Shown here: positions 859-59,553 of the stretch, in pieces
Numbering within the stretch: the stretch's first letter is position 1
Layout of the letters: every line of letters starts with the position of its first letter
Source: an uncultured Gemmatimonadales bacterium
GTDB lineage: Bacteria > Gemmatimonadota > Gemmatimonadetes > Gemmatimonadales > GWC2-71-9
DNA length: 64,000 nucleotides
Assembly: GCA_963798915.1 (NCBI GenBank)
Contig: CAWCVB010000003.1
Coordinates: 1 to 64,000, forward strand
Direction: 5' to 3'
Translations under genes and position numbers: made by a program
The notes under the pieces: generated by a model
The model's input: only the letters and a program-made list of their open reading frames with translations
What the model was told of the DNA's origin: nothing
Database searches by the model: none

Positions 859-941
859 GCGAACGTGGCGGAACTGGCAGACGCGCAGGACTTAAGGATC
901 CTGTCCCGCAAGGGGTCCGGGTTCGACTCCCGGCGTTCGCA
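859..941 (+). tRNA. tRNA-Leu (probably anticodon TAG; this copy shows an extra A in the anticodon loop)
   Basis: Acceptor stem GCGAACG/CGTTCGC-A, D-arm GGCGGAACTGGCAGACGC, anticodon stem CAGGA/TCCTG, long variable arm, GGTTCGACTCC T-loop; the other two copies read CTTAGG. Confidence 0.92.
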
Positions 942-1752
942 TCTCGTTCATTCTCAATAATTAACGCCCTCGTGCGCTCAGTGCCTGCCAGGATTTTGCG
1001 GCACGACTTTGCCTGACCTTTGCCGATCGGTTTCGGCAAGGCGGAAAAAATACCGGTCGGGTGCGGACTGGCGGCGTCTCCGACTGCCAACCCGGAACCA
1101 CAGGCCTGGCGACGCGCAAGCCAGGAACGCCGGCAGGCCGGCGGGATGCCGCTCGCGACCCGAAGGAGTCGACGAAGCATTGGAAGCGAACCTGGCGAAC
1201 GGTGGATTCATCCATGGATCGCAGATCGCACGACGCCTGGGCCAACACCCGGAAGCGAGCGTGATCCGCAATGTCGCCAACCTCAGGATCGGGGATGCGA
1301 TCCACCGCCTGGTCGTGAAGCCCCAAGTCGCCGCTGACGCCCTGGCGCAGCACGTCACCATCCAGGGCAGAGGGGCCGTCCAGCAGCTGCTTCGCAAGAT
1401 GGCACGAATCCGCTCGAGCGGAGGCTGTACGGGCGATCGGCGACGCCGCCGGCGGTGACTGGATCGGAGGTTTCCTGGGCGGACTGGTGGCGCCACCGAT
1501 CCGGCAGGGGCTGCTCGACGACTAGTAGCAGCAGAGCTAGACGCAGAGGGCCTGCAGCCGGTAACGGGCCCTGCTCCAGGATCAGGGGGTGGCAGGGTAG
1601 CCCGTCCCGTAGCACATTGAACGAGCCCCCGTACGCCACAATCGCCGCACCCCTTGTAGTAGCGAGGCGCTGGGTGCCGTCCTGTCCCGTGGGGGCGTAC
1701 TGGAGGCGGGCGCCAGAACCATTTGTGGTTCAACACGTCTAAAGGGCGAGGA

Positions 1753-2663
1753 ATGGGCACTATCCGCGTTGCGGACTTCGAAGACTCCTTTGTAATCCAC
1801 TTCGGCGGCGACTTCGCCCGCATCAACGCCTACACGCTCGCCTCCACCCTGATCGGCATCGCTGATGCGGCAAGAGCGGCCAATACGCTCGTTGACCCGG
1901 CCACGAGATTGAAGTCGTCGTCGAGGCGCTCGGTGACGGCAGCTTTCGGACGAAGATCCGCGCCGTCTACCGCGCGGCGGACAACCTCTTCTCGCGCGAC
2001 AGCCTTCGCAACATCGCACTTGGCATCATTGCGACGTTCATCTATGAGCACACCCTCGCTCCGGACGCGCGCATTACGGTGCAAGTCGATTCAACCGAAG
2101 TTGTAATTCAACACGGCGACGACAGGATCATCGTCCCCCGCGCCGTCCATGAGGCGGCTCAGCAAGCCGAACGCGATCCGCAGTTCAGGAAGGGAATCGG
2201 CCAGGTACTTCGCGCGGTTGAGCAGGACGTCGTGATTACCACCTTTCAGCATCTGCAAAGATGACCGGGAATCGCGCCCACCCATCGAGATTCCGCGCGA
2301 ACGGTTCGCCGCCATTCCTAATAGCTTCCCGGACGACGACTCTGGCGACCGAGAGCTGGTCAAGCTCACCGAGGTCGAGATCCTCCGTGCGATCCTCGAA
2401 CGCTCCCGGCGCAAATGGGAGTTCGTTTGGAACGGCATGAAGATCTCAGCGCCGGTCACCGACCACAGTTCTGGGACGACTTCTTCGCACATAAGATCGC
2501 CATCGCACCGGGAGACGCGCTGCTGGTGAGACTTCGAATTCGTCAGGTTCGGGCGCCGGACATCGGCGTGTTCATTAATGACTCGTACGAAGTGATTGAA
2601 GTGGTGAAGCATATCCAGCGTACACGCCAGGCCGACTTTCCATTCGATGACGATGCCGCCTGA
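1753..2663 (+). CDS. Hypothetical island protein of ~300 aa (frameshifted)
   Basis: ORF pieces 1753-, 2079- and -2663 join into one coherent protein, MGTIRVADFEDSFVIHFGG...RRKWEFVWNGMKISAPVTD..FWDDFFAHKIAIAPGDALLVRL...; GAGG RBS. Confidence 0.6.
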
Positions 2664-5600
2664 AGCGAGGCTGATCGCCGCTGCCGTCCCGGTGAAGCTC
2701 AACGCGCTCGCTGAACGCTGGGCAACGGCGAAGGCGGCCGAGCGTGCGAACGCGCAGTGCTACCTGATCGAGCTCTGCCACGCGCTCGGCGTGGAACCGC
2801 CGCGGCCGGCGGGTACGGGCTATGAGTTCGAGTACCCGGTGAAGGTGGTGAGCCGCAAGGGTGAGGAGGCGACCAACTTCGTCGACCTCTACAAGGCGGG
2901 CCACTTCGCGCTGGAGGCGAAGGACCAGGAGGACGGGCGGGCGACCGACCTGCTGCTCCGAAAGGCGTTCGGCCAGGTGAGGAACTACGCGGCGCACGTC
3001 CCTGCACGAGCGCCCGCCGTACCTCCTCGTCCTGGACGTCGGACGACCCTGCTGGTGTGGGACCACTGGAGCGGCGACTACGGCGGGTTCAACCAGGGGC
3101 GGCGCATCGACCTGCGGACGCTCGCGGATCGGCCGCAGGACGTGGACCTGCTGCGCGCGATCTGGTCCGATCCGGCGAGCCTGGACCCGCGAGCGCGGGC
3201 CGAGGCCGTGACCAAGGAGATCGCGGCGAAGCTGGCCGCAGCTCGCCACCGAGCTGGAGGCGAAGGGGCATGCGCACGAGCGGGTCGCGCGCTTCCTGAT
3301 GCGGTGCGTCTTCACGATGTTCGCCGAGGACGTGGGGCTGCTGAAGGGCGAGCCCTTCCGCGGCATCCTGGACGAGGCGGCGCTCGAGAGCCCGGCGGAG
3401 TTCGTCCCGCTGGCGAAGGAGCTCTGGCGGCGATGGACCGGGGCGAGCGCTTCCTGCTGCAAGAAGCTGCTCCGCTTCAACGGCCACTTCTTCAAGGACG
3501 CCGAGGCGCTTCCGCTGGAAGCGCGAGGACCTGGCGCTCCTGCTCCAGGCGGCCGAGGCGGACTGGTCGGACGTGGAGCCGACGATCTTCGGCACCCTGC
3601 TGACGCGGGCGCTGGATCCGAAGAAGCGCCACCGGCTCGGCGCGGAGTACACGCCGCGGGAGTTCGTCGAGCGCGTGGTGCGGCCGACGGTCGGAGCAGC
3701 CGATCCGGGAGCGATGGACCGCGGTGCAGGCCGAGGTGCTCCAGCTGCGGGACCGCGGGCGACCCAGGACCTGAACGACGGCCGAGAGCGCGCTGCGGGA
3801 CTTCCACGACGTGGCTCCGCGGCCTGCGCTTCCTCGATCCCGGCCTGTGGCTCGGGCAACTTCCTCTACGTGACGATGCACCTGGTGAAGCGCATCGAGC
3901 TGGAGGTGATCCGCGCGATCGAGGAGCTCACCGGGGAAGCACGAGATCCGCCTTCGAGGAGGTCGGGCCCTGGCAGTTCCACGGGATCGAGGTGGACGCG
4001 TGGCCGCGCGAGATCGCGGAGCTCACGCTCTGGATCGGCTTCCACCAGTTCTGGAGGCGCACCACGACGTGCAGCCGCCCGAGCCGATCCTGCGCGACAC
4101 GGGCACGCTCGAGCTCCGCGACGCGGTGCTTCAGTGGGAGCGGATCGAGGAGGACCCGGAGAGAGCGCGCCCGACCCGACGCCGCGCATCAAGCACCCGG
4201 TGACCGGCGAGCTGGTGCCCGACCCGGAGGCGCGGCTGCCCGTACGAGGAGCACGTGCGGCGCGCGGCCGGCCAGCTGGCCGGAGGCGGACTTCATCATC
4301 GGCAACCCGCCGTACATGGGGGCGCGGCGACAGCGCGACGCGTTTGGGGACGGATACGTCGACGCGCTGCGCAGCGTCTACCCGGACGTTCCCGAGACGG
4401 CCGACTACGTGATGTACTGGTGGTGACGGCGGCGCGAGGAGGTCGCTGCGGGGCGGACGATCCGGGCCGGGCTGATCACGACGAACTCGATCACGCAGCG
4501 CTAAACCGCACGTCGATCGAGAAGGCGGCGCGAAGGGGGCTGACGGTGGTCTGGGCGGTCGCCGACCACCCGTGGGTGGATGAGGCCGGCGCGGCCGCCG
4601 TGCGTGTCGCGATGACGGTGATCGCGAAGGATCCGGCACGGGCGACGCTGGATGCGGGTCGACGAGCGAGGCCGGAGATCGTCGAGGAGATCGAGGTACC
4701 GCGTCTCAACGCGGACTTACAGCGCACGCCGACGTGGCGACGAGCGCTAAGGCGAGCCTGCTGCACGCGAACCGAGGGCTTGTCGTCGCGCGGCTTTACC
4801 TTGGTGGGCCGCGGGTTCGTCCTGACGGACGAGGCGCAAGCTGAGGTGCTGACGCAGCCGATCCTGAGCATGCGCATCATCATCCGGCCGTACCTGAACG
4901 GCCGAGACCTGAGCCCGGCCGCGCGGGGTCTACGTGATCGACTTCGGTGCGTAACGAAGGAGGAGGCTCGAGCGTACCCGGTGCTCTACGACATACGTCC
5001 GATCGCGTGTGAAGCCGCAACGCGACGCCAACAATGACCGGAGCACCCGCGAGAACTGGTGGCGTTTCGGCGAAACGGGAGGGCTCCGTCCGGCGCTCGA
5101 AGGGCTGCCGCGCTACATGGTCACAGTCGAAACGGCGAAGCATCGCTTCTTCACATTCCTGGACGCTGAGGTCGCGCCGGACAAGAAGATGATCTGCATC
5201 GCAACGGACGCGCCGCCCACCTAGGCATCCTCTCGTCGGCGATCCATGTCCAGTGGGCGCGCAAGGCGGGAGCGCGCCACGGGGTCGGGAACGATCCGAC
5301 GTACAACAAGAGCCTGTGCTTCGACTCCTTCCCGTTTCCTGATGTCGCGCCAGGGCAGCGAAGAACATCCGGGCGGTGGCCGAGCGGCTGGACCGGCATC
5401 GGAAGGAGGCCCTGGAGCGCGGGAAGGAAGTGACGATGAATGGGATGTACAACGTCGTCGAGAAGCTACGCATGGGGAGAACTCGATCAGCCCCAAGGAG
5501 CGGAAGGTTCACGACCTCGCCGCATGCGGAGTCCTGCGCGACTCCACGACGAGCTGGACGTGCTGGTGGCAGAGGCGTACGGCTGGACATGGCCGGAAGA

Positions 5601-5987
5601 CCCGGCCGTGATCCTGGAGTGGCTCGTCGTACTGCATGATGAGCGCGTGGCCGAAGAGCAACGCGGGCACATCCGCTGGCTTCGCCCCGACTACCAGCGG
5701 CCGCACTTCGGCACGGCCGATGACCGGGCCGCGCCGCTGGCGCTCACGCCGGGTGCGGCTGCGCCGGCCGAGCCCGAGGGCCCGAAGCCCTGGCCGAGGG
5801 ACGCGATCGGGCAGATGAGCGCGCTCCGGGAGCTCGTTGCCGCCGGCCCGCTGACGGTTGAGGAGGCGAGCCTCCGGTTCACCAGGGCCAAGTTCGAGTC
5901 ATCGCCCATCACTTCGAGACCGAGATATTGGGAGAGCTGCAGCGGTCTGAAGACGGGCGATATCACGAGGTGCTGCAGCCCGCATGA
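2647..5987 (+). CDS. MmeI-like type IIL restriction-modification enzyme / N6-adenine DNA methyltransferase (many frameshifts)
   Basis: N-terminal ERANAQ..LIELC and [13 protein letters not shown] (PD-ExK nuclease), [14 protein letters not shown], (D)PACGSGNFL (motif I), IIGNPPY (motif IV), HRFFTFLD, C-terminal [19 protein letters not shown]. Confidence 0.85.
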
Positions 5988-6015
5988 GCCAGGCACCGAC
6001 GTTCCGGGAGGACTG

Positions 6016-7138
6016 ATGGCACTGCAGGACCATGGGCCAGGGCGTTCATACTGGCTGGATCTCTTCACCGGCGCGACGTGGCAGGAGTTCCTGGCCGCCG
6101 GCGGAGAAGTCTCGGGCTTCCGCGAGAGCCGATGGAAGACGATGCAACGGATGAAGCCCGGCGACTACCTCCTGTGCTACCTCACGGGGATCTCCCGCTT
6201 CATCGCGGTGTTCGAGGTTGTCTCACCCCCGCTCCGGGACCGGACGCCGATCTGGAGCGATGAAGACTCCCCTGTCGCGTTCGGGTCAAGCCCGTCGTGA
6301 CGCTGACGCCGGAGACGGCGGTCCCGATCCATCAACTCCGGGGCCAACTCAGCTTCCTGAAGACGGACGACACTGGCACCGGCTGGACCGGCCATGTCCG
6401 GGGATCACCCACGCGGTCGTCCGAGTTTGACGGTCAGGCCGTCGTCAGCGCTGTGCTCGCCGCGAAGGAGAGCCCGGTCGTCCGGCCCGTGAACCCAGCC
6501 AAGCTCGGCCGCCGGCCGCGAGCGCTGAAGGCGAAGATCGGACCAGTGACGGTTCCAGAGGACGAGGAGGCTGAGCTCGAGCCGGCGGCGGACGCAGGAC
6601 GAGAGCCCACCGCCCACACCGAGGTGCAGTACATGCTGCGAAGCTGGGCAGCGACATGGGCCTCGACGTGTGGGTCGCCCGGAACGACCGGAAGAAGGCC
6701 GTGAACGGCCACGCGATCGCCGAGATCCCCCAGCTCAAGGATGAGCTGCCGCTGCAGTTCGATGACGCGACCAACCGTACCATCGAGCTGATCGACGTAC
6801 TCTGGCTGCGGGGAAACTCGATCGTCGCCGCGTTCGAGGTTGAGAGCACCACGTCCGTGTACTCTGGACTGCTCCGCATGGGCGACCTCATCACCATGCA
6901 GCCCAACATCAATATCCCCCTCTACATCGTCGCGCCCGACGAGAGACAGAACAAGGTGATCCAGGAGGTCAATCGGCCGACGTTCGCGAACCTGGCGCAC
7001 CCGATGAGCGAGCTGTGCCGCTTCATCGCGTTCTCGACACTGGGGGAGCGAGTCGAACAGGTCGCGCCCGTCGTCCGCTATCTCAAGCCGGATTTCCTGG
7101 ACGAGCTCGCGGAGTCGTGTGAGGTAGAGGAAGAGTAG
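6016..7138 (+). CDS. EVE-domain protein fused to PD-(D/E)XK nuclease, putative modification-dependent restriction enzyme (2 frameshifts)
   Basis: GGGAGG RBS; N-terminal YWLDLFT..TW.EF...GFR...MKPGDYLLCY (EVE/PUA-like); C-terminal HTEVQ..L..MGLDVWVARND, IDVLW, AFEVESTTSVYSGLLRM.DL. Confidence 0.75.
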
Positions 7139-7527
7139 GCCGGCACCCCGACATCATAGTCCAGGCGGGCTGACGCCCGCCGATGTACCAGGGCAGCGGG
7201 GCCAGCCGCGAGGACACCGCCGAGCGTATTCTCGGACTACGGTGGTTCGACAGGCATGGACGTTCCTGCCCATGGGCTCGATTCGTTCGCTGAGCAATGT
7301 GAAAATTTTCTTTCGGAATGTGAGCTCGCGCGATAGGGACAGGCCCATTTCCACAGACGCCGGGTCGAATAATTCAGGGGGGGGTATCCCGTAGCCGACC
7401 ACCTGTGCCACAACTGTGCCGGAAGAGGGGACTACTGTGGACAAGAGGCGACAAGTTCGCTGCCGCGTAACTCCAACAATGACATCACCCAGCTGGTCCG
7501 GTCTAGTCTGGCGTGTACGCCGCCATA

Positions 7528-7581
7528 AGGACTTAGGCTCCTGTCCCGCAAGGGGTCCGGGTTCGACTCCCGGCGTTCGCA
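7528..7581 (+). repeat. att-site direct repeat: 3' part of tRNA-Leu from the anticodon stem onward
   Basis: AGGACTTAGGCTCCTGTCCCGCAAGGGGTCCGGGTTCGACTCCCGGCGTTCGCA matches 887-941 except in the anticodon loop. Confidence 0.9.
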
Positions 7582-7596
7582 TGGTTGTGCTCGTGG

Positions 7597-7625
7597 TTGA
7601 CAAACTTTAAGCGAACTGGTAGTCT
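7597..7625 (+). promoter_or_regulatory. sigma70 promoter of the aminotransferase-panB-metXB operon
   Basis: TTGACA-N17-TAGTCT directly upstream of the riboswitch. Confidence 0.75.
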
Positions 7626-7642
7626 GTTGGCACAATCGACGA

Positions 7643-7695
7643 CTCGTGGTCATTTGCTGCCTATTGCCGCCACGTTAAACAAAGTGCTAAAACGC
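7643..7695 (+). promoter_or_regulatory. SAM-II (SAM-alpha) riboswitch
   Basis: CGTGGTCATTTG..TTGCCGCCACGTTAAACAAAGTGCTAAA: P1 CGTGG/CCACG, ATTTG, TTAAACAA and GCTAAA match the SAM-II pattern; lies upstream of met genes. Confidence 0.85.
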
Positions 7696-7700
7696 AACCA

Positions 7701-7731
7701 GCCCGGCGGCAATTGTCGTCCGGGCGTTTCT
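7701..7731 (+). terminator. Hairpin after the riboswitch (candidate expression platform)
   Basis: GCCCGG-CGGCAATTGTCG-T-CCGGGC followed by GTTTCT; short U tract. Confidence 0.45.
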
Positions 7732-7744
7732 GTGTCGGTATCCC

Positions 7745-8947
7745 ATGCCTCCTGCTTCAGGCACCCAGACCGCTCCGTCTCGAGTCCGGCTCGCCCGCCG
7801 CCATTCCGACCTGGTCGCTGAAGCCGCCTTTGCCATCGCCGCCCGAGTTGGCGCGCTGCGCTCGGCGGGCCGGGACATTGCCGATCTCTCGATTGGCGAG
7901 CCGGATCTTCCGACACCAGACGTTGTCCTGGACGCGGGCGCCCGTGCGCTCCGCGACGGCGGCATCCGCTACACCGCCCCGGCTGGTCTGGCCTCGCTCC
8001 GTCAAGCCATCGCCTCGGATTTCTCCCGCTGGTGCGCACCAACCCCGCCGGAGGATGTTTTCGTTACTCCCGGTGCCAAGTGTGCACTGCTGTACGCCAT
8101 TCTCGCGACGGTCAACGCGGGCGACCACATGCTTGTCCCCGACCCCGGCTTTCCGCCCTGCCGCTCCCAGGTGGCGCTCGCCGGAGCCCGCTGCATCGGC
8201 TATCCGCTCGGTGCGTCCGCGGATGACATCGCCACACGCGTCACCCCGCGCACCCGCGCCATCCTCATCAACTCGCCTGGCAACCCCTCGGGCGCTGCCC
8301 TCTCTCGCTCTGATCTCGAGTTCGTCGCCGAGCTCGCCGTCCGTCATGACCTGACGATCATCTCCGACGAGATCTACGCCCGCATCTGGTACGGCGACGG
8401 TGGCCGCGCGCCGAGCCTCGCCGGCCTGCCGGGACTTCGCGGCCGGACCATTGTCGTGGACGGGTTCTCGAAGGCCTGGCGCATGACCGGCTGGCGGCTG
8501 GGCTACGCCATCGTGCCGCCGCACTGCCGGGAGGTTTTCCATCGGCTCGCCGTGAGCGCGCACTCCTGTGTTCCCGGGTTCATCCAGTGCGCCGGCATCG
8601 CTGCGCTCGAGGCGGGAGACGAAGTGGTCCGGTCGTACGTCGGCGAGCTCCGCCGCCGGCGCGACGAGCTGGTCAACGGCTTGAACTCCATTCCGGGCGT
8701 GCACTGCATCGTGCCGCCTGGCGCCTTCTACGCCTTCCCCGACTGCTCGGCGCTGCTGGCGCGCCTCGGTTGCGACGACGTCGCCCTGGCCGACCATCTG
8801 CTCGAGCAGGCCGGAGTGGCCGCGGTTCCCGGCTCCGCCTTTGGCGCTCGAGGCGCCGAGCATCTGCGCCTGTCATTCGCCGCGTCGCCCTCCGCCCTGC
8901 GGGATGGTGTGTCGCGGATTCGCCACTTCCTCAACCCTCAACGCTGA
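7745..8947 (+). CDS. PLP-dependent class I/II aminotransferase (aspartate aminotransferase family)
   Basis: LSIGEPD, INSPGNPSG, ISDEIY, DGFSKAWRMTGWRLGY (PLP Lys), GAFYAFP, HLRLSFA. Confidence 0.92.
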   Translation: MPPASGTQTAPSRVRLARRHSDLVAEAAFAIAARVGALRSAGRDIADLSIGEPDLPTPDVVLDAGARALRDGGIRYTAPAGLASLRQAIASDFSRWCAPTPPEDVFVTPGAKCALLYAILATVNAGDHMLVPDPGFPPCRSQVALAGARCIGYPLGASADDIATRVTPRTRAILINSPGNPSGAALSRSDLEFVAELAVRHDLTIISDEIYARIWYGDGGRAPSLAGLPGLRGRTIVVDGFSKAWRMTGWRLGYAIVPPHCREVFHRLAVSAHSCVPGFIQCAGIAALEAGDEVVRSYVGELRRRRDELVNGLNSIPGVHCIVPPGAFYAFPDCSALLARLGCDDVALADHLLEQAGVAAVPGSAFGARGAEHLRLSFAASPSALRDGVSRIRHFLNPQR

Positions 8948-8952
8948 CTGCC

Positions 8953-9825
8953 ATGGCATCCCGCAAGATCACTACCGCGACCCTCAACGGGCTCCGTACC
9001 CGGGGCGAACGTGCTGTCTTCGTCACGGCCTACGACTACCCCACCGCAATCTTTGCCGAACGCGCCGGCGTCGACATGCTGCTGGTGGGCGACAGCGCGG
9101 CCATGACCATGCTGGGCCATGCGTCTACCGTCGCGGTGACCATGCAGGAAATGCTGGTCTTCACCCGCGCCGTCACGCGCGCCGCCAGACGCGCCTTCGT
9201 GGTGGGAGACCTTCCCTTCCTCTCCTACCAGGTGTCCGATGCGGAGGCGGTGCGCAACGCGGGCGCCTTCATCGCCGCCGGCTGCGATGCGGTCAAGTGC
9301 GAGGGTGGCCGGCGCATCACGCCGCGGGTTCGTGCCATGACCGACGCCGGCATCGCCGTCATGGGCCACCTGGGCCTCACGCCGCAGAGCCTTGGCCAAC
9401 TTGGCGGATACAAGGTGCAGGGCCGAACCCTGGCGGCGGCGGACGTGGTCCTGCAGGACGCCCTCGCGCTGCAGGAGGCCGGAGTCTTTGCACTGCTGCT
9501 CGAAGCGCTGCCCGCCGAGGCCGCCGCGTATGTGCGTGACCAGCTCGACATCCCGGTCTACGGCATCGGCGCCGGCCCCGGATTGGACGGCCAGCTCGTC
9601 ATCGTGCACGATATTCTCGGCAGCTTCGTCGGAGACATTCGTCCCAGTTTCATCCGACGCTACGCCGATCTGGATGTAACCATCACGGCGGCGCTGGAGG
9701 CCTTCGCCGCCGATGTACGCAGCGGGAGCTTTCCCGGTCCCGACCAGTGCTATTCGATCGCCCCGGAGGCCGCTGCCGAAATCCAGGCCGCACGCAACGG
9801 GAGAAATCTCACCAGTGTCTCGTAA
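8953..9825 (+). CDS. panB: Ketopantoate hydroxymethyltransferase family protein (PanB-like)
   Basis: TAYDY, LVGDS, DLPFLSY, VKCEGG, GHLGLTPQS..GGYKVQGR, GIGAG..DGQ. Confidence 0.9.
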   Translation: MASRKITTATLNGLRTRGERAVFVTAYDYPTAIFAERAGVDMLLVGDSAAMTMLGHASTVAVTMQEMLVFTRAVTRAARRAFVVGDLPFLSYQVSDAEAVRNAGAFIAAGCDAVKCEGGRRITPRVRAMTDAGIAVMGHLGLTPQSLGQLGGYKVQGRTLAAADVVLQDALALQEAGVFALLLEALPAEAAAYVRDQLDIPVYGIGAGPGLDGQLVIVHDILGSFVGDIRPSFIRRYADLDVTITAALEAFAADVRSGSFPGPDQCYSIAPEAAAEIQAARNGRNLTSVS

Positions 9826-11893
9826 TCCTTTGCCGAGCGTGCCGGCGCATTCACTCATCGGCTGTGACGGGGGCGCCGTCGTCGCCGTACTGGGCGGCAT
9901 CTCTGCCAATCATGAAGTGAGCCCCGGCTGGTTTGAACGCCAAGTGGGACCGGGGCGGGCGGTGGACACCGGAACGTACCGGGTGCTCGGTCTGGACTGG
10001 GAGGTGATGTCCGGCAGGCCCACACGGACCCACGATCAGGCGGCTCGGCTCGCCCAGGTCCTCGACCAGCTTGGCATCGCCGCACTGGACGCTATCATCG
10101 GCGCCTCGTACGGTGGCATGGTGGCGCTGGCGTTCGCCGAGGAGTATCCCGGTCGGGTCGGGCGCCTTCTGGTGCTGAGCGCCGCGCACGCTGCGCATCC
10201 GATGGCGACCGCTCACCGCGTCATTCAGCGCCGCATCCTCGATCTTGGTGGCCGCGGGGCCCGGCGACAGGAAGCACTGGCGCTGGCCCGGGCGCTTGCG
10301 ATAACTACCTATCGGACAGCCGAGGAATTTTCCGCCCGATTCACCGTTGAACCGACCAGCGCCCCGAGCGGCGCGCGCTTTCCGGTGGAGGACTATCTCG
10401 AGCACTGCGGCGATCGGTTCGCGTGCAGCTGGACCGCCGAGCGGTACCGCGCCCTGTCGGAGTCACTGGATCTTCACCGGGTGGATCCGGCGCGAATCCG
10501 GACGCCCACGTTTCTGCTGGCCGTCGAGGGCGACACCATCGCCCCACCCGCACAAATGGGGGCACTGCAGCGCGCGCTGGCCGGTCCCTCGACGCTGACG
10601 ATCATTCCCTCGCGCTACGGGCATGATGCCTTTCTCAAGGAGGAGGCAGCAGTCTCCCGGTTTGTCCAGGAGGCGCTCAACCTCCCTGTGGCCGCGCGGA
10701 GCCCGGCGCAGTCAAGAACGATCTCGCGTGCCGAGGATCCGTGCCGGCCCGTCAATCCCGGGCCGGCGACCAGCGCGGTGCGAGCCGGCATCGGCAGTGA
10801 CCGCCACCATCGGGCGGTGGTGCCACCGATCCACCTCTCGTCGACGTTTGCGTTTGATGGCCTGGGCCGGAAAGGCACCTACGACTACACCAGATCCGGC
10901 AATCCCACTCGGGATCATTTGGCCCATGCGCTCGCCGACCTGGAGCTTGGCACCGGCGCGGTGGTCACGAGTTCCGGGATGTCAGCGGTGGCGCTGGTGC
11001 TGCAGCTGCTTCGGCCAGGAGAGATCGTGCTTGCCGCGCATGACTGCTACGGCGGGACTCACCGCGCGCTGGTGGGACTGGCGGGGAAGCAGCATTTCGT
11101 GCTGCGCCGGGCCGACCTCACTGCCCCTGACGCCGTGGAGCAGGTCAGGTCCAGCGGCGCCAAGCTGGTCTGGATCGAGACGCCAAGCAATCCACTGCTG
11201 CGACTGACCGACATCCGGAAGGTGGCAGACGCCGCGCACGACGCCGGGGCGCTGGTCGTGGTGGACAACACGTTCCTGTCGCCGGCGCTGCAGCGTCCCC
11301 TTGAACTGGGCGCGGACATCGTGGTCCATTCCACCACCAAATACCTGAATGGGCACAGCGACGTGGTAGGAGGGGCGGTGATCGCCCGCGACGCAGCGAT
11401 CCACGAGCAACTGGCCTGGTGGGCCAACTGTCTGGGGCTCGCCGGGGCTCCGTTCGACAGCTTCCTGACGCTGCGCGGGTTGCGAACGCTGGATGCGAGG
11501 ATGCGAGTGCACCAGGAGAATGCCGCTCGGCTCGCCGTCGCGCTGGAGCGGCAGCCCGCCGTTTCGAGCGTGCACTATCCGGGCTTGCCGGCGCACCCGC
11601 AGCACCTCCTGGCCCGGACCCAGCAATCGGGTTTCGGGGCAATGATCAGCTTCGAGCTGGGGGGAGGGATCGCCGCGGTGGAGTGCTTCCTGCCGCGGCT
11701 CCAATATTTCTCGCTCGCGGAATCACTGGGCGGAGTGGAAAGTCTCATTGCCCATCCGGCCACCATGACGCACGCGTCCATGGATGCCGAGGCCCGAAAG
11801 GTGGCGGGTATTTCAGACTCGCTGCTGCGGATTTCAGTCGGCATCGAAGACGGGACGGACCTGGAGCGGGATCTGGTAGAGGCGTTGGAGTGA
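9815..11893 (+). CDS. metX-metB: Fused homoserine O-acyltransferase (MetX, Xanthomonas-like short type) and cystathionine gamma-synthase (MetB)
   Basis: GTG start after GGGAGA; GGISA, IGASYGGMVAL (nucleophile Ser), YGHDAFLKE; in-frame linker; then PPIHLSSTF, YDYTRSGNPTR, HSTTKYLNGHSDVVGG, AESLGGVESL. Confidence 0.88.
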   Translation: MSRNPLPSVPAHSLIGCDGGAVVAVLGGISANHEVSPGWFERQVGPGRAVDTGTYRVLGLDWEVMSGRPTRTHDQAARLAQVLDQLGIAALDAIIGASYGGMVALAFAEEYPGRVGRLLVLSAAHAAHPMATAHRVIQRRILDLGGRGARRQEALALARALAITTYRTAEEFSARFTVEPTSAPSGARFPVEDYLEHCGDRFACSWTAERYRALSESLDLHRVDPARIRTPTFLLAVEGDTIAPPAQMGALQRALAGPSTLTIIPSRYGHDAFLKEEAAVSRFVQEALNLPVAARSPAQSRTISRAEDPCRPVNPGPATSAVRAGIGSDRHHRAVVPPIHLSSTFAFDGLGRKGTYDYTRSGNPTRDHLAHALADLELGTGAVVTSSGMSAVALVLQLLRPGEIVLAAHDCYGGTHRALVGLAGKQHFVLRRADLTAPDAVEQVRSSGAKLVWIETPSNPLLRLTDIRKVADAAHDAGALVVVDNTFLSPALQRPLELGADIVVHSTTKYLNGHSDVVGGAVIARDAAIHEQLAWWANCLGLAGAPFDSFLTLRGLRTLDARMRVHQENAARLAVALERQPAVSSVHYPGLPAHPQHLLARTQQSGFGAMISFELGGGIAAVECFLPRLQYFSLAESLGGVESLIAHPATMTHASMDAEARKVAGISDSLLRISVGIEDGTDLERDLVEALE

Positions 11894-11988: not shown

Positions 11989-12064
<76 letters not shown>

Positions 12065-12065
<1 letters not shown>

Positions 12066-13255
12066 CAGGCGCCCAACGTAAAACTGAACCTCGCGCCCTC
12101 CCCCGGCCTGGCCTCGGCCCAGACCCGCCCGCCATGCCGGTGAATGACCCGCCGCACCGTGGCGAGGCCGATGCCCGTGCCCGGAAATTCGTCGGCGCGA
12201 TGCAACCGCTGGAACGGCCCGAAGAGCCGGTCTGCAAACGCCATGTCGAAACCCACACCGTTGTCCTGCACAAAGTAGGTCCGCTCACCATTGCGCTGCT
12301 GGAGGCCGAACTCGATCACGGCATCGGGCCGCCTGGCGGTGAATTTCCAGGCGTTCTGCAGCAGGTTGTCCAGCGCGATCCGGAGCAGGCGCCCGTCCCC
12401 GCTTACGATGATACCGGGCCGGATTTTGGTGACGACGTTGCGGCTCGGATCGGCATGGCGCATGTGCTGGAAGGTCAGCCGGGCCAGTTCGCTCAGGTCC
12501 ACCTCATGTTCCCGCAGCTCGGCGCTGGTGACGCGAGCCAGATGAATGACATCGTCAATCAACTGTCCCATGTGCGTCACGCTGGTGCGGATGTTGCCAA
12601 GAAATCGGGTGCCAGCCGGGGACGTGACCTCGCCACTCTCCTCCAGCGCCCGCGCAAACCCGTCAATGCGCCGCAGCGGGGCCCGGAGATCATGGGACAC
12701 CGCGTAGCTGAAGCTCTCCAGCTCGCGGTTCTTGTGCTCCAGGTCCCGGATGAGGGCCTTCTGCGTCACCGTGAGCGTAAGGGCTGCTTCCTCGCTGGCG
12801 CGCAACCGTTCGGCCTGGCGGGTAAGCTCGGCGTTCCGGCGGGCCAGCTCCACGAACACCGCCACCTTGGACCGGACAAATTCCGGCACCACCGGCTTGA
12901 TCAGGTAATCGACGGCGCCGACAGCGTAGCCGCGCACCGCCATCTGGGCATCCCGGTCGGCTGCGGTGAGGAAGATGATCGGCGTATCACGTGAACGCTC
13001 GCGCTGCCGGATCAGCTCGGCGGTTTCGAATCCGTCCATGTCCGGCATCTTCACGTCCAGCAGGATGACCGCGACATCCGCCAGCAGCAGCTGCTTGAGC
13101 GCCTCGCGACCGGATGTGGCAGTGACGATCTCCCGGCTGATGCCCTCGAGCATCGCCTTGAGCGCCACCAGGTTGGCGGGCTGGTCATCGACCAGCAGGA
13201 TCCGGACCCCCGGCTGGCCCTCGACCGCCTCGGGCTCCACTAGCGGTGCAGCCAT
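12065..13255 (-). CDS. Receiver-histidine kinase (REC-HisKA-HATPase)
   Basis: [51 protein letters not shown]. Confidence 0.92.
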
Positions 13256-16200
13256 ACCCTGAGCAGCGACAAGAGCTGGTCGGTATCCACCGGCTTGGCG
13301 ATATAGTCCACGGCGCCGGCCTCGATGCATTTCTCGCGGTCACCCTTCATCGCCTTGGCCGTCACGGCAATCACAGGCAACTTCCGGAATCTTGGCTGTT
13401 CCCGGATGGCCCGGGTGGTTTCGTATCCATCCATTTCCGGCATCATCACATCCATCAGGACGATATCAATGCCTGGCACCTCCTGGAGCCGGGCAAGCCC
13501 TTCCCGTCCGCTTTCGGCATGGACGACATTCATGCCGCTGCGCTCGAGCAGCGTCGTCAGGGCAAAGATGTTCCTGACGTCGTCATCCACAATCAGCACG
13601 GTGCGACCGAGCAGCGCCGGATCCTGCTGGCGCACCCGGTCGAGCATCTGTTGCCCCGACTCGGGAAGCTGCTCGGTGACCCGGTGAAGGTAGAGCGAAG
13701 TATCGTCGAGCAGCCGCTCCGGTGAACGCGCGTCCTTGATCACCACGGACTCCGCCAGGCGCCCAAGCTCCAGCTCTTCCGTTCGCGAGAGCGACTTTCC
13801 GGTGTAGACCACGGTCGGCAGCTTGCGGAGGCCCACTTCACTCTTGACCCGCTTGACCAGCTGAAAGCCGGTCATGTCCGGCAGGCCCAGATCCAGCACC
13901 ATGCAGTCGAACCGGCGGGCCTGAAGCTGGTCGAGTGCCTCGGCGCCACTGCCGACGGCGGTGGTCTCGACGTCCTCACCCGCGAGCAGCGTCATGATGC
14001 TGTTCCGCTGGGCCAGGTCGTCCTCGACAATGAGCAGCCGCTTCACCGGCCGGTCCACAAAGTCCGTAAGCGCGCGGAGTGACTCGGCAATACTGTCCCG
14101 GCTGGCGGGCTTGGTGAGGAAGTCGATGGCGCCAAGGCGCAGACCCCGCTGCCAGTTTTCCTCGACCGAGATGACGTGGACCGGAATGTGGCGGGTCGCC
14201 GGGTCGTGCTTGAGACGGTCGAGGATGGTCCAGCCGTCGGCATCCGGCAGACGAAGATCGAGGGTCACGGCGGTGGGAAGGAATTCGCGCGCCAGGGCGA
14301 GCGCCTGGTCCGCGCGCTGGGCCACGATTCCCTTGAAGCCGTGCTCCCGGGCAAGGTCCAGCAGGATCTGCGCGAACGCCGGGTCATCTTCCGCGATCAG
14401 CAGCACCCGCTCACCGGCCGCAATCGAGCCGCGATCGTCGCCGATGGTGCGCTCCACCGTTGGCAGGATGGTGAGCCGGGAGCCCAGCGGCGCCTTGGGA
14501 GATTCGATCGTCGCGACGCGGACGGCCTCCTCGGCTTCGTCGGGGCTCTCGAGCGGAAACGCGGCAGGAAGATAGAGGGTGAAGGTGCTGCCCTCGCCGG
14601 GCTGGCTCTCCAGGCAGATCTCGCCGCCGAGGAGTCGGGCAATCTGGCGGCTGATGGAAAGGCCGAGGCCGGTCCCACCGTACTTGCGACTGGTGGTGCC
14701 GTCGCCCTGCTGGAATGCCTCGAAGATGACGGCGTGCTTGTCGTGCGAGATGCCGATGCCGGTGTCGGTGACGCTGAACGCGATGACCGCCTCGGCCGAG
14801 TCGAGATGCACCTGGCCCGGGCTCCAGCCATTCGTGGCTACCCGCGCATCCAGTGACACCCGGCCCCGTTCGGTAAACTTGAATGCGTTGGACAGGAGGT
14901 TCTTGAGCACCTGCTGCAGCCGCTTGGCATCGGTCTGCACCACCGCGGGCAGGTTCTGGCCCAGCCGCACGTCGAAATCGAGGTGCTTGAGGTCGGCCAT
15001 CTGGCGGAAGGTGCCTTCCACGAACCGCCGCAGGTCGGCAAAGGGAATATTGCCGACGTCCACGGCCATCGTCCCGGACTCGATCTTGGAGAGGTCCAGG
15101 ATATCATTGATCAGGTCGAGGAGGTCGGAGCCCGACGAGTGAATCGTCTGGGCATAGCCGACTTGCTTGCCGGTCAGATTGGCCTCGGCATTCTCCGACA
15201 GGATCTGGGAGAGGATCAGCAGGCTGTTGAGCGGGGTCCGGAGTTCGTGCGACATGTTCGCCAGGAACTCGGACTTGTACTTGGACGTGAGGGCGAGCTG
15301 TTCGGCCTTCTCTTCCAGCGCCACCTTGGCCTGTTCCACCTCGCGGTTCTTCTGCTCAACCTCGGTCTTCTGCATCGAAAGCAGCCGGGCCTTGTCCTCC
15401 AGTTCGAGGTTGGTCTGCTGCAGCTCGTCCTGCTGCTTCTTGAGCAGCTCCTCGGACTGCTGGAGCGAGCGGGTCTGCTGCTCCAGCCGCTGGTTGGTCT
15501 CGGTGAGCGCCTCACGCTGCGACTGCAGGCTCTCGGTCAGCGCCTGGGACTGCTTCAGCAGTTCCTCGGTGCGCATGTTGGCGATGATCGTATTCAACAC
15601 GATGCCGATGCTCTCGGCCAGCTGCTCCAGGAAGTTGAGCCGGATCTCGTCGACCGGCTCGAACGTGGCCAGTTCCAGCACCGCCTTGACGTTGCCTTCG
15701 AAGAGCACTGGAATGACCACGATGTTCCGCGGCGCGGCCGCGCCCAGGCCCGAATTGATGCGGATGTACTCGCCAGGCACCTCGTTCAGCATCAGGACGC
15801 GCCGGTCCACGGCGCACTGGCCTACCAGTCCCTCGCCCAGCCGGAAGGAGCGGGGACTGTCCTGGCGTCCCTCGTTGGCGTAACTGGCCAGCAGTTCCAG
15901 CCGTACCTCGCTGCCGGTGCCATCCACCAGATAGAACACCCCATGATGGGCCGCCACCAGCGGGGCCAGGTCAGAGAGAATCAATTCCGAGACCGCAGTG
16001 AGGTCGCGCTGTCCCTGGAGCATCCGGCTGAACTTGGCGAGGTTGGTCTTGAGCCAGTCCTGCTCGGTGTTCTTGCGCGTGGTGTCGCGCAGGTTGCGGA
16101 TCATCTCGTTGATATTGTCCTTCAGCTGCGCCACCTCGCCCTGCGCCTCCACCGTGATGGACCGGGTCAGGTCGCCCTTGGTGACCGCGGTGGCCACTTC

Positions 16201-18273
16201 CGCGATGGCGCGGACCTGCGTGGTGAGGTTGGCCGCGAGCTGATTGACGTTGGCAGTGAGGTCGCGCCAGATGCCGGCCGCGCCGGGCACCCGGGCCTGG
16301 CCGCCCAGCTTGCCATCAATCCCGACTTCGCGCGCCACGTTGGTCACCTGGTCGGCAAAGGTCGCCAGGGTGCCGATCATTGCATTGATGGTCTCGGCGA
16401 GCGTCGCAATCTCGCCCTTGACCTCCACCACCAGCTGCTGCTTCAGGTCGCCGTTGGCCACGGCCGTCACCACGCGAGCAATGCCGCGCACCTGCGCGGT
16501 GAGGTTGCCGGCCATGGAGTTCACGTTGTCGGTGAGGTCCTTCCAGACCCCGCCCACGCCCTTCACTTCCGCCTGGCCGCCCAGCTTGCCTTCGGTGCCC
16601 ACCTCGCGGGCCACGCGCGTCACTTCCGAGGCGAAGGAGTTGAGCTGGTCCACCATGGTATTGACGGTGTTCTTGAGCTCCAGGATCTCGCCCCGCACAT
16701 CCACCGTGATCTTCTTGTCGAGTTCGCCGCGGGCCACGGCGGTCGTGACGTCGGCAATATTGCGGACCTGGGAGGTGAGGTTGCCCGCCATCGAGTTGAC
16801 GTTGTCGGTCAGGTCCTTCCAGACGCCACCGACGCCCTTCACGTAGGCCTGGCCGCCCAGCTTGCCTTCGGTGCCCACCTCACGGGCCACACGGGTCACT
16901 TCCGACGCAAAGGAATTCAGCTGGTCCACCATGGTGTTGACCGTATCCTTGAGCTCGGCGATTTCTCCTTTCACGTCCACCGTGATCTTCTTGTCCAGTT
17001 CGCCGCGGGCCACCGCCGTGGTCACTTCAGCAATGTTCCGCACCTGCGAGGTCAGGTTGCCGGCCATCGAATTCACGTTGTCGGTGAGGTCCTTCCAGAC
17101 CCCGCCCACGCCCTTCACGTAGGCCTGGCCGCCGAGCTTGCCTTCGGTGCCCACCTCGCGGGCGACGCGGGTGACTTCCGAGGCAAAGGAGTTGAGCTGG
17201 TCCACCATCGTGTTGATGGTGTTCTTGAGTTCCAGGATTTCGCCGCGGACATCCACGGTGATCTTCTTGGAGAGGTCGCCGTTGGCGACTGCGGTCGTCA
17301 CCTGTGCGATGTTGCGGACCTGGGTGGTGAGGTTCGCGGCCATCGAGTTGACGTTGTCGGTGAGGTCCTTCCAGGTTCCGCCCACGCCGCGGACCTGGGC
17401 CTGGCCACCGAGCTTTCCTTCGGTTCCGACTTCGCGGGCGACGCGGGTGACTTCCGAGGCAAAGGAGTTGAGCTGGTCCACCATCGTGTTGATGGTGTCC
17501 TTGAGCTCTGCGATTTCGCCCTTCACGTCCACCGTGATCTTGCGGTTCAGCTCGCCGCGGGCGACGGCAGTGGTCACCTCGGCAATGTTGCGGACCTGGG
17601 TTGTCAGGTTGGCCGCCATGGAATTGACGTTGTCGGTCAGGTCCTTCCAAGTCCCGGCCACGCCCTTGACCTGGGCCTGCCCGCCCAGCTTGCCCTCGGT
17701 GCCCACTTCGCGGGCCACGCGCGTCACTTCCGAGGCAAAGAGGCCCAGCTGGTCCACCATGCCGTTGACCGTGCGCCCGATCCGCAGGAACTCGCCCATC
17801 AGGGGCCGGCCGTCGATGTCGAGCGCCATGCTCTGGGAGAGGTCGCCCTTGGCCACCGCGCCCAGCACGCGCGCCACCTCGCTGGTCGGCTGCACCAGGT
17901 CGCCGATCAGGGCGTTCATCGAGTTGACCGGCGCAGCCCAGGACCCACCGGCGCCGCGGAGCGAGGCCCGCTGGCTGATCCGGCCCTCCTTGCCGACCAC
18001 CTGGCTCACCCGGTCGATCTCGGTGACGAGGTCCTGGTTCATCTGGATGATGTCGTTGAGGGTGTCCGCCACCTTGCCGCGCACCCCGATCCGGTCCCGG
18101 GGAAGCCGTACGCTGAAGTCGCCCCGCTTCACGGCAGTGAGCACCTCGAGCAGTTCGGCCGCATCGATCCCGTCAGGGCTTCCATCGCCATTCAGTGCGG
18201 TCACCGTGCGGACGGCCTTGGCACCCGCGCGCCGGCTGGTGCGGGGCCTGGAGGAAGAAGTGTCGTCGGACAT
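13240..18273 (-). CDS. Cytoplasmic poly-HAMP hybrid histidine kinase (HAMP repeats-GAF-HisKA-HATPase-3xREC), group III/OsaA-like
   Basis: ~92 aa repeats [59 protein letters not shown], three receiver domains; GAGGA RBS at the MSDD start. Confidence 0.93.
16200..17930 (-). repeat. Intragenic ~276 bp HAMP tandem repeats (6 close copies plus a degenerate one further upstream in the gene)
   Basis: Recurring VAREVG..GKLGGQA units, near-identical at DNA level. Confidence 0.9.
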
Positions 18274-18493
18274 GAAGTGGTCCTCAGGCAAGACGCGCGA
18301 ACCAGCGCGCGGAAGATATGATTCTGAGTAAAGGCCCCGGCAGTCGGGTCGCCTGGTTATGAGCATGGACTCTGATGGCGCCAGGGTCAAGGCCAGCCCG
18401 TTTGACAGCAGGCCCCGGGCAGGCGAACGTTGTTCGGCTACCCTTCCCCAGGCTCGACCGCCGGCAGCCGGCCGCCGGCTGGACAGATAGCAG

Positions 18494-58386: not shown

Positions 58387-59553
58387 ATGACACATATTGA
58401 ATCGACCGACACCGGTTTTGCCTTCGCCACCAGGGCCGTGCACGCCGGCCAGGCGCCCGATCCAACGACCGGCGCCGTGATGACGCCGATTTACCAGACC
58501 TCGACGTACGTGCAGGCCGGCTTGGGCAGGCACAAGGGGTACGAATACGCGCGCACCCAGAATCCCACCCGCGAGGCGTGGGAGCGGTGCGTTGCCAGTC
58601 TCGAGGGCGCCGCCCATGGCTTTGCCTTCGCCTCGGGGCTCGCGTCACTCGATGCGGTCCTGAAACTGCTCTCCAAGGGCGATCACGTCATTTCCGGCGA
58701 GAACATCTACGGCGGTTCCCACCGGCTCATGCAGCAGGTCTACACCCGCCTGGGCCTCGAATTCACCTTCGTGGACATGCGTGACATTGCCAATGTCGAG
58801 CAGGCGCTCAGACCCGCCACCAGGGTGATCTACTGCGAGACCCCCACCAATCCCATGATGAACCTCGCCGATCTGTCGGCGGTGGGCGACCTGGCCAAGG
58901 CGCATGGGCTGGTGTACGTCGTGGACAATACGTTTGCCACGCCGTTCTTCCAGCAGCCGCTTGCCCACGGCGCCGACATCGTGCTGCATTCCACCACCAA
59001 GTACCTGAATGGCCATAGCGACATGGTGGGTGGCATGCTCGTCACGTCACGCGATGACCTGGCGGAGCGGATCGGCTTCCTGCAGAACTCGGCCGGGGCC
59101 GTGCCGGGGCCGATGGACTGCTGGCTGGCGCTCCGCGGCGTCAAGACGCTGCCGCTGCGAATGCGGCGCCACGACGAGAACGGCCGCACCATCGCCGACT
59201 GGCTCTCGCAGCAGTCCAGCGTGCGCAAGCTCTACTATCCCGGCCTTCCCTCGCACCCGCAGCACGAACTGGCCCGGCGCCAGATGAGCGGTTTCGGCGG
59301 GATGCTGTCGCTGGACCTTGGCGATGCCGCCAGGGCGCGCCGCTTTGTCGAGGCAACGAAGATCTTCGCGCTGGCCGAATCGCTGGGCGGCGTGGAGAGT
59401 CTGATCGGGCATCCTGCCTCCATGACGCATGCGTCGGTGCCGCGCCCCATGCGCGAAGCCATGGGGCTGACGGACAGCCTGATCCGCTTGTCCTGCGGGA
59501 TCGAGGATCCGGCCGACCTGATCCAGGATCTGGAGCGTGCTCTTGCCGCGTAG
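58387..59553 (+). CDS. Cystathionine gamma-lyase/synthase family PLP enzyme
   Basis: TPIYQTSTY, YEYARTQNPTR, HSTTKYLNGHSD, AESLGGVESL. Confidence 0.92.
   Translation: MTHIESTDTGFAFATRAVHAGQAPDPTTGAVMTPIYQTSTYVQAGLGRHKGYEYARTQNPTREAWERCVASLEGAAHGFAFASGLASLDAVLKLLSKGDHVISGENIYGGSHRLMQQVYTRLGLEFTFVDMRDIANVEQALRPATRVIYCETPTNPMMNLADLSAVGDLAKAHGLVYVVDNTFATPFFQQPLAHGADIVLHSTTKYLNGHSDMVGGMLVTSRDDLAERIGFLQNSAGAVPGPMDCWLALRGVKTLPLRMRRHDENGRTIADWLSQQSSVRKLYYPGLPSHPQHELARRQMSGFGGMLSLDLGDAARARRFVEATKIFALAESLGGVESLIGHPASMTHASVPRPMREAMGLTDSLIRLSCGIEDPADLIQDLERALAA

Follow-up and report, generated by a model that had tools for sequence, protein, structure and literature searches.

Homoserine is taught as an aspartate derivative, formed through aspartokinase, Asd and Hom. 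The stretch of DNA analysed here (the window: 64,000 nucleotides of contig CAWCVB010000003.1 from an uncultured Gemmatimonadales bacterium) raises the question of how a bacterium could obtain homoserine when these enzymes are missing. In its operon at positions 7597 to 11893, a gene of the PanB family, panB2, follows a riboswitch-like element for S-adenosylmethionine (SAM) and lies between an aminotransferase gene and a metX-metB fusion. Searches of the window's own genome (G000; 3.3 Mb, 84.8% complete) yielded no hom, asd, aspartokinase or dapB. A preliminary description, made from the letters of the window, had interpreted PanB2 as the source of the homoserine consumed by MetX and MetB. The comparative genomic analyses presented here support this interpretation overall. 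We consider it probable that PanB2 supplies homoserine in place of hom by joining pyruvate and a one-carbon (C1) unit to 4-hydroxy-2-oxobutanoate (HOB), which would then be converted to homoserine. The family assignments, intact motifs, riboswitch-like element, gene context and distribution on which this reading builds were observed directly and are given below.

A panB paralog behind a SAM-II aptamer

All elements of the operon lie on the plus strand. A putative sigma70-type promoter was read from the letters at 7597..7625 (TTGACA at 7597-7602, a 17-nt spacer and TG-n-TAGTCT at 7617-7625); its -10 element, with matches at only 3/6 positions, kept the consensus scan from calling it. It is followed at 7645..7692 by a SAM-II aptamer (SAM_alpha, RF00521), identified by a covariance-model match and its invariant columns. 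The match is partial, covering model positions 10-60, and with 34.2 bits (E 8e-6) it stands just under the gathering score of 36, so that no match was obtained at gathering level. The aptamer retains all the columns that are invariant across 12 aligned aptamers of the phylum, the orthologous SAM-II aptamers of relatives exceed the gathering cut-off, and its position is upstream of met genes, with metX-metB downstream. A GC-rich hairpin at 7701-7725, followed by GUUUCUGUGU (a weak U run; 7701..7735 in total), may act as a terminator or expression platform; the scan of the window did not call it as a terminator and the fold z-score of the leader (-0.82) is not unusual.

The first gene (7745..8947) encodes a class I pyridoxal phosphate (PLP) aminotransferase of 400 aa, with the SKAW lysine at 243, that matches PF00155 and reaches the cut-off of none of the 25 NCBIfam families listed. 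Separated from it by 5 nt, panB2 (8953..9825) encodes a PanB-family hydroxymethyltransferase of 290 aa (PF02548, TIGR00222), a proposed pyruvate hydroxymethyltransferase. The third gene (9815..11893) is a single open reading frame (ORF) of 692 aa in which a PRK08775-type MetX domain (296.2 bits against a cut-off of 296) is fused to a TIGR02080 MetB domain (543.8 against 504.55 bits), and the motifs GASYGG, GDTI, GHDAFL and HSTTKY are present. The MetX domain is predicted to be a homoserine O-acyl(succinyl)transferase and the MetB domain a Xanthomonas-like cystathionine gamma-synthase. Dozens of full-length homologues of 650-820 aa carry both domains, which rules out the fusion as a sequencing artefact. 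The promoter, SAM-II riboswitch, aminotransferase and panB-like gene were thus laid out as described at the outset, including the 5-nt gap. The coupling to metX and metB needed correction: these are one fused gene, and its overlap with panB2 (11 nt) exists only if translation starts at the GTG at 9815, which has GGAGA 10 nt upstream. In the database gene call (684 aa), the start lies 8 codons further downstream, and a gap takes the place of the overlap.

PanB2 exceeds the cut-offs of PF02548 (328.6 bits) and TIGR00222 (281 bits). Its AlphaFold model (pLDDT 87) shows the barrel fold of ketopantoate hydroxymethyltransferase (KPHMT); the top Foldseek matches were all KPHMT, with TM-scores of ~0.8 to 1M3U (E. 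coli PanB), 1O68 and 3VAV. For comparison, PanB2 was defined by an identity of at least 62% to the window protein. The 201 loci with a PanB match, less 7 duplicates, gave 194: 129 PanB2, 42 panC-linked and 23 others. D45, S46, D84, K112, E114, H136 and E181 (E. coli numbering), which we take from the E. coli structure to be the metal-binding and catalytic residues of PanB, are 100% conserved in the 129 PanB2. The pocket, in contrast, is altered. Relative to the panC-linked proteins, which keep V179, I200, V/I212 and V214 at 95-100%, PanB2 carries V179L (99%), V214I, V/I212L and I200Y (100%), and also L113C, L47A and G48A. V179 presumably lines the same substrate pocket. The combination L-Y-L-I at 179/200/212/214 was found in 119/120 close homologues versus 9/150 family representatives, 99 of the latter 150 having a V-I-V/I-V pocket. 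In E. coli PanB, positions 212 and 214 set nucleophile size, and trimming I202, I212 or V214 widens the nucleophile range, according to the available text of PMC7610986. The added bulk at 179 and 214 would suit pyruvate, which lacks the two methyl groups of ketoisovalerate. PanB2 is therefore a member of the PanB family by profile, fold and catalytic residues but has neither the panC linkage nor the ketoisovalerate pocket of a pantothenate PanB.

The closest genome matches of the window protein (63-76% identity) were all titled Gemmatimonadota, after which identity drops to at most 57%. A PanB phylogeny had been proposed as a check, and 108 of the 194 PanBs (43 genome-derived PanB2 included; metagenome copies and 8 near-copies left out) were placed in a quick maximum-likelihood tree. 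PanB2 was monophyletic in it: a branch with SH-aLRT 99 sets it off from the other PanBs, the panC-linked copies of Gemmatimonadota included. The nearest group (support 100) consists of six PanBs from other phyla that are not linked to panC and have the same L-Y-L-I pocket. Two of these six and two copies on phage contigs adjoin a thiamine diphosphate (ThDP) enzyme (L042, L044, L274 and L275), with sugar-pathway genes around the pair in L042 and L044. The remaining L-Y-L-I PanBs recorded outside Gemmatimonadota (L043, L062, L069 and L083) come from an archaeon, a Treponema metagenome-assembled genome (MAG) and two Acidobacteriota MAGs, where their contexts are unrelated. Phage and plasmid collections gave no PanB2 match at 60% identity or more, and the best phage match adjoins panC.

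The rest of G000 agrees with the absence of aspartokinase and hom from the operon, since neither was found anywhere in the genome. Its sole semialdehyde-dehydrogenase match is ArgC; ArgB, PyrH and carbamate kinase account for all three of its amino-acid kinases; and tblastn with the Hom, ThrA domains, short aspartokinase, Asd and ThrB of relatives gave no match in G000. An overlooked divergent hom was rejected on the result of this search; the top NAD_binding_3 matches were Gfo/Idh/MocA proteins. DHDPS-family matches in carriers without the aspartate route were discounted as well: the G000 copy is under the dapA cut-off and dapB is missing. The panC and panD genes, correctly noted as absent from the window, sit on another contig (C11) in a panB-panC-panD locus whose panB is 46% identical to PanB2. 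The preliminary description had allowed for PanB2 being the sole panB in the genome, which this separate locus shows not to be the case. G000 also has glyA and, on contig C10, metH and a YitJ-type MetF fusion behind another SAM-II aptamer. G000 has thus retained a putatively SAM-controlled conversion of homoserine to methionine but no recognisable aspartate route to homoserine, a statement that for G000 alone is limited by the incompleteness of the assembly.

Distribution and partners of panB2

The sample comprised 240 Gemmatimonadota genomes at least 90% complete. They are related MAGs, and the counts are descriptive rather than independent; four of them (G053, G093, G153 and G178), all non-carriers, are flagged as unpublished, and no conclusion depends on any one of these. 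PanB2 was present in 16/240 genomes and hom in 117/240, and hom accompanied PanB2 in 2/16 carriers versus 115/224 non-carriers. Every carrier had a thrB match (16/16) and all except one a MetM-like gene (15/16). Among the 59 genomes with a MetM-like gene, PanB2 occurred in 13 of the 17 without hom versus 2 of the 42 with it, and only 1/181 genomes without this module had PanB2. The two genes also exchange places. A stand-alone hom occupies the panB2 slot in riboswitch-hom-metM-like-moaD-moeB operons (L232-L234; the aptamer exceeds the cut-off in the first two of these, and L234 shows a crude motif only), and hom lies just before metX-metB in riboswitch-(short aspartokinase)-hom-metX-metB operons (L262-L264, L267). 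Genus g3 repeats this pattern on a small scale: PanB2 occurs in four genomes, all of them without hom; a fifth genome lacks PanB2 and has riboswitch-thrB-thrA-thrC; and in three more, PanB2, hom and thrB are all missing.

Aspartokinase, asd and hom were not found in five carriers that are 97-99% complete, and dapB was found neither in the four of these five that were checked nor in G000. G000 and these four keep glyA or metF where these were looked for; glyA was present in 5/5 tested. A second panB was identified in 14/16 carriers, and 6/7 retrieved second copies adjoin panC. The expectation that carriers would lack hom or have a second panB beside panC was therefore largely borne out, with 14/16 lacking hom. 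In the two carriers without a second panB (98% and 100% complete), PanB2 is the sole panB and neither panC nor panD was found; it is therefore retained there without the pantothenate pathway.

The gene context of PanB2 points in the same direction. No panC was found within 5.2 kb of PanB2 in any of the 129 loci. De-replication at 98% left 115 loci, 86 of them with at least 1.5 kb downstream, and a homoserine or homocysteine gene was near PanB2 in 74/86 (threonine-synthase-like in 64, sulfur carrier in 58, thrB in 49, ordinary thrC in 6 and metX in 1). Altogether metX adjoins panB2 in 5/129 loci, four of which were too short for the 86-locus tally. The commonest operon was riboswitch-(aminotransferase)-panB2-thrC-like-thrB-moaD-moeB. 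Other arrangements were aminotransferase-panB2-metX (the window, L026 and L219, the last two both ending before metB), riboswitch-metY-like-metX-panB2 (L036, L038) and riboswitch-panB2-thrC (L030). What the four unrelated partner modules share is the need for homoserine. The link of panB2 to the methionine regulon is thus conserved, whereas the exact aminotransferase-panB-metX order recurs only in L026 and L219. Contrary to what the window had suggested, metX-metB is not the usual partner, which is a MetM-like synthase with thrB, a sulfur carrier and MoeB. This module is absent from the window and from G000.

A SAM-II aptamer was detected upstream of panB2 in 15/16 sampled carriers, 13 of them above cut-off, and in 9/11 and 12/14 further loci of the clade (sets that overlap the carriers); none was found upstream of 4 canonical panB loci or 5 sister-clade loci. 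The association of panB2 with the riboswitch is kept across two families. SAM_alpha aptamers, named for alphaproteobacteria, were present in all 22 Gemmatimonadales genomes searched, and no report combining the two was found in the literature searched. Two further observations concern the neighbours of panB2. In L031, L214, L217 and L012, a gene for DAHP synthase or a related aromatic-pathway enzyme lies close downstream, and L203 contains a second panB2-like ORF (8473-9273) after the aminotransferase (panB2-aminotransferase-panB2), cut by the end of the locus.

A proposed route to homoserine and its alternatives

According to our proposal, the methionine regulon that SAM would control in some Gemmatimonadales has recruited a PanB paralog to replace the aspartate route to homoserine. 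The C1 donor, direction and acting aminotransferase are inferred, as is the substrate, for which the context, the altered pocket and the promiscuity of canonical PanB speak. PanB2 would add a hydroxymethyl group from methylene-tetrahydrofolate (methylene-THF, supplied by GlyA), or possibly free formaldehyde, to the Mg-bound enolate of pyruvate, giving HOB. The adjacent class I aminotransferase or housekeeping aminotransferases would convert HOB to L-homoserine, a step that must precede MetB or MetM because both need the alpha-amino group. The MetX domain would then O-acylate homoserine and the MetB domain would exchange the acyl group for sulfur; in most relatives, ThrB and the MetM/MetO/MoeZ-like module would take over instead. 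This activating step might pull the aldol-type reaction forward. Finally, MetH and the MetF fusion of contig C10 would complete methionine, and SAM, judging from the aptamer, would shut the operon off.

Engineered strains indicate that PanB-based HOB chemistry is feasible. In the available texts, E. coli PanB converted HOB to pyruvate and methylene-THF in an engineered strain (PMC6966089), and overexpressed panB of P. putida partially rescued a strain without hom that was given sarcosine (bioRxiv 2025.02.17.638773). No natural PanB-based homoserine route was found in the open literature, subscription papers lying mostly outside the search, and the available part of the GapMind 2026 main text names neither panB nor the Gemmatimonadota. 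As anticipated in the preliminary description, the chemistry is known from synthetic pathways and the natural route appears undescribed. A broader proposal combines two parts. Bacteria that have lost the entire entry into the aspartate family would naturally build the four-carbon backbone of methionine, and in some carriers also that of threonine, from pyruvate and folate-bound C1. In addition, a wider class of PanB-fold pyruvate hydroxymethyltransferases with the L-Y-L-I pocket would feed HOB to branched sugars in other microbes and phages, making HOB natural in at least two pathways. We regard the chances of this combination as evenly balanced.

Several observations weigh against the route as proposed, and its weakest part is the aminotransferase, a candidate HOB-to-homoserine transaminase that is not specific to PanB2. 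The gene is upstream of panB2 in 42/82 loci and absent from that position in the other 40. At E 1e-95, members of its clade turned up in 7/16 carriers and also in 16 non-carriers, of which 13 have hom; in hom-positive non-carriers the gene adjoins the same kind of met module. In four genomes it precedes the riboswitch instead of following it. The aminotransferase may thus have another role. In a variant that overlaps with our proposal, PanB2 makes HOB, housekeeping enzymes aminate it, and the adjacent enzyme has another methionine job, such as the transamination of methionine and 2-oxo-4-methylthiobutanoate. Endogenous aminotransferases sufficed for HOB amination in E. coli (PMC7918591) and aminated HOB in P. 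putida (bioRxiv 2025.02.17.638773), as far as the available texts go, and an IlvE-type gene lies directly upstream in L021. The variant is nevertheless a possibility that we rate as somewhat doubtful, since the aminotransferase is the first gene under the riboswitch and is closely coupled to panB2 in the window and in many loci.

Other observations question the role of PanB2 itself. Two of the 16 carriers also have hom, 12/86 PanB2 loci have no consumer gene nearby, 4/17 hom-less genomes with the MetM module lack PanB2, and 32/240 genomes are metX-positive without hom and without PanB2. Several genomes with neither hom nor PanB2, including one from the genus of the window (G111), have operons of short aspartokinase, asd, metX and metB or metY. 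Such short aspartokinase-asd-metX operons with metB or metY were recorded in L258, L259, L261, L265 and L266, and in L237 with a MetM-like gene, all without hom and PanB2; they point to a third homoserine source, such as a novel semialdehyde reductase. The pocket signature is common to PanBs in sugar clusters and other contexts and is therefore, by itself, no marker of homoserine synthesis. Moreover, 11/16 carriers keep lysC and asd, so that an unrecognised aspartate-semialdehyde reductase could serve them. The term aspartate-independent, used in the preliminary description, is accordingly forced for G000 and five carriers and does not extend to these 11.

It could thus be argued that uptake or some enzyme not yet recognised provides the homoserine and that PanB2 has another SAM-controlled role, with a different 2-oxo acid or in formaldehyde disposal. 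Besides the 32 metX-positive genomes and the recurrence of the pocket class elsewhere, the frequency of thrB in hom-less non-carriers would fit this explanation. However, it leaves unexplained why PanB2 stands in the hom slot of two unrelated modules and why it tracks the absence of hom (13/17 vs 2/42). The six genomes lacking both aspartokinase and asd could not use a semialdehyde reductase, and the NAD_binding_3 matches examined in carriers were Gfo/Idh/MocA oxidoreductases in 5/5 cases. We therefore consider it unlikely.

Reverse flux is more improbable still. Here homoserine would be deaminated to HOB, and PanB2 would cleave HOB to pyruvate and methylene-THF, either to provide the methionine methyl group in a natural HOB cycle or to dispose of surplus homoserine. 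The sole documented THF-linked use of PanB with HOB, in the available description of the engineered E. coli cycle, ran in this direction, opposite to the one that we propose; two carriers have hom, and C1 supply would be likewise compatible with SAM control. Yet reverse flux needs a source of homoserine, and 14/16 carriers have no hom, with the entire aspartate entry missing from G000 and five others. The presence of glyA in 5/5 tested cases also speaks against it, and PanB2, in the position of hom, would compete with its co-transcribed consumers. Finally, a redundant pantothenate enzyme moved under the riboswitch by rearrangement, as the score above the TIGR00222 panB cut-off, the intact catalytic residues and the database name (3-methyl-2-oxobutanoate hydroxymethyltransferase) might suggest, is hardly credible for a separate clade with fixed pocket changes that adjoins panC in 0/129 loci, persists in two genomes without panC and panD and keeps its riboswitch across two families.

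If PanB2 does supply homoserine as proposed, a second route to this amino acid would exist, a dedicated natural shortcut from pyruvate and C1. Wrong calls of auxotrophy and of pantothenate synthesis would be corrected in an abundant, mostly uncultured bacterial group, and an evolved enzyme would become available for a C1-engineering step now forced with promiscuous aldolases.

Surroundings of the operon and comparison with known systems

Upstream of the operon, the window contains an insert of ~6.6 kb on the plus strand (859..7582), between a tRNA-Leu (859-941) and a 55-nt repeat of its 3' part (7528-7582). The MmeI-type restriction-modification and EVE-domain genes in this insert look broken. 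The opening part of contig C14 represents the empty site, in which the tRNA leads straight into the same promoter and riboswitch, so both forms are in the assembly. The possibility that the operon is cargo of the insert was ruled out, as it lies outside the tRNA repeat and the empty site joins the same promoter. Downstream, a tandem 7-nt repeat of ~10 'tcagcgc'-like units (11995-12075) separates the met operon from the next kinase gene, and a large poly-HAMP hybrid histidine kinase is encoded on the minus strand at 13240-18390. G000 has two further Cys/Met PLP lyases, one of them in the window (58426-59532), as well as a threonine-synthase-family gene above the PRK08197 cut-off (L279, C6:100052-100990) with no thrB match in the genome.

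PanB2 resembles canonical PanB (EC 2.1.2.11; E. coli 1M3U) in family, fold and metal-binding and catalytic residues. It differs in its separate clade, in V179L, V214I, V/I212L, I200Y and L113C, in its predicted SAM-II control, and in having methionine and threonine genes rather than panC as neighbours. The two proposed reactions are those of the engineered HOB cycle (Bouzon et al. 2017, as described in the available text of PMC6966089), which combines PanB with a homoserine transaminase. That cycle is synthetic and runs from homoserine to C1 with a promiscuous canonical PanB and an evolved AlaC, whereas PanB2 is natural, appears dedicated and would work toward homoserine. The synthetic homoserine cycle (He et al. 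2020, through the available parts of PMC8879981, PMC7918591 and 2025.02.17.638773) proceeds likewise from pyruvate and C1 through HOB to homoserine. It uses free formaldehyde and the aldolases RhmA/YfaU or GarL for carbon assimilation, in contrast to a PanB paralog in amino-acid synthesis. The portions seen of two engineering reviews (PMC8879981, PMC7918591) term HOB non-native.

The metX-metB part is closest to the metA/metX-metBX-hom operon of Xanthomonadales (GapMind 2026, section 9, available part), the best NCBIfam matches of the window domains being PRK08775 and PRK08776. The same section proposes that MetBX reaches homocysteine without MetC. In the window, by contrast, metX and metB are fused, and PanB2 and the aminotransferase stand in the place of hom. 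The PanB2 partners in relatives match, by gene content alone (threonine-synthase-like protein, ubiquitin-like carrier, MoeB/MoeZ and thrB), the MetM/MetO/MoeZ thiocarboxylate route from O-phosphohomoserine (Hasebe et al. 2024, through the available part of GapMind 2026 appendix 4). A last parallel concerns the sister L-Y-L-I PanBs beside ThDP enzymes (L042, L044, L274, L275), which recall the acyl-branched sugar clusters with ErwI/ErwE (PMC9306805, in the available text). The corresponding slot of that scheme is filled by an aldolase that turns pyruvate into a 4-hydroxy-2-oxo acid, and HOB is a substrate of ErwE in vitro. These clusters differ from the PanB2 operon in serving another pathway and having no riboswitch, and the available text describes no PanB in them.

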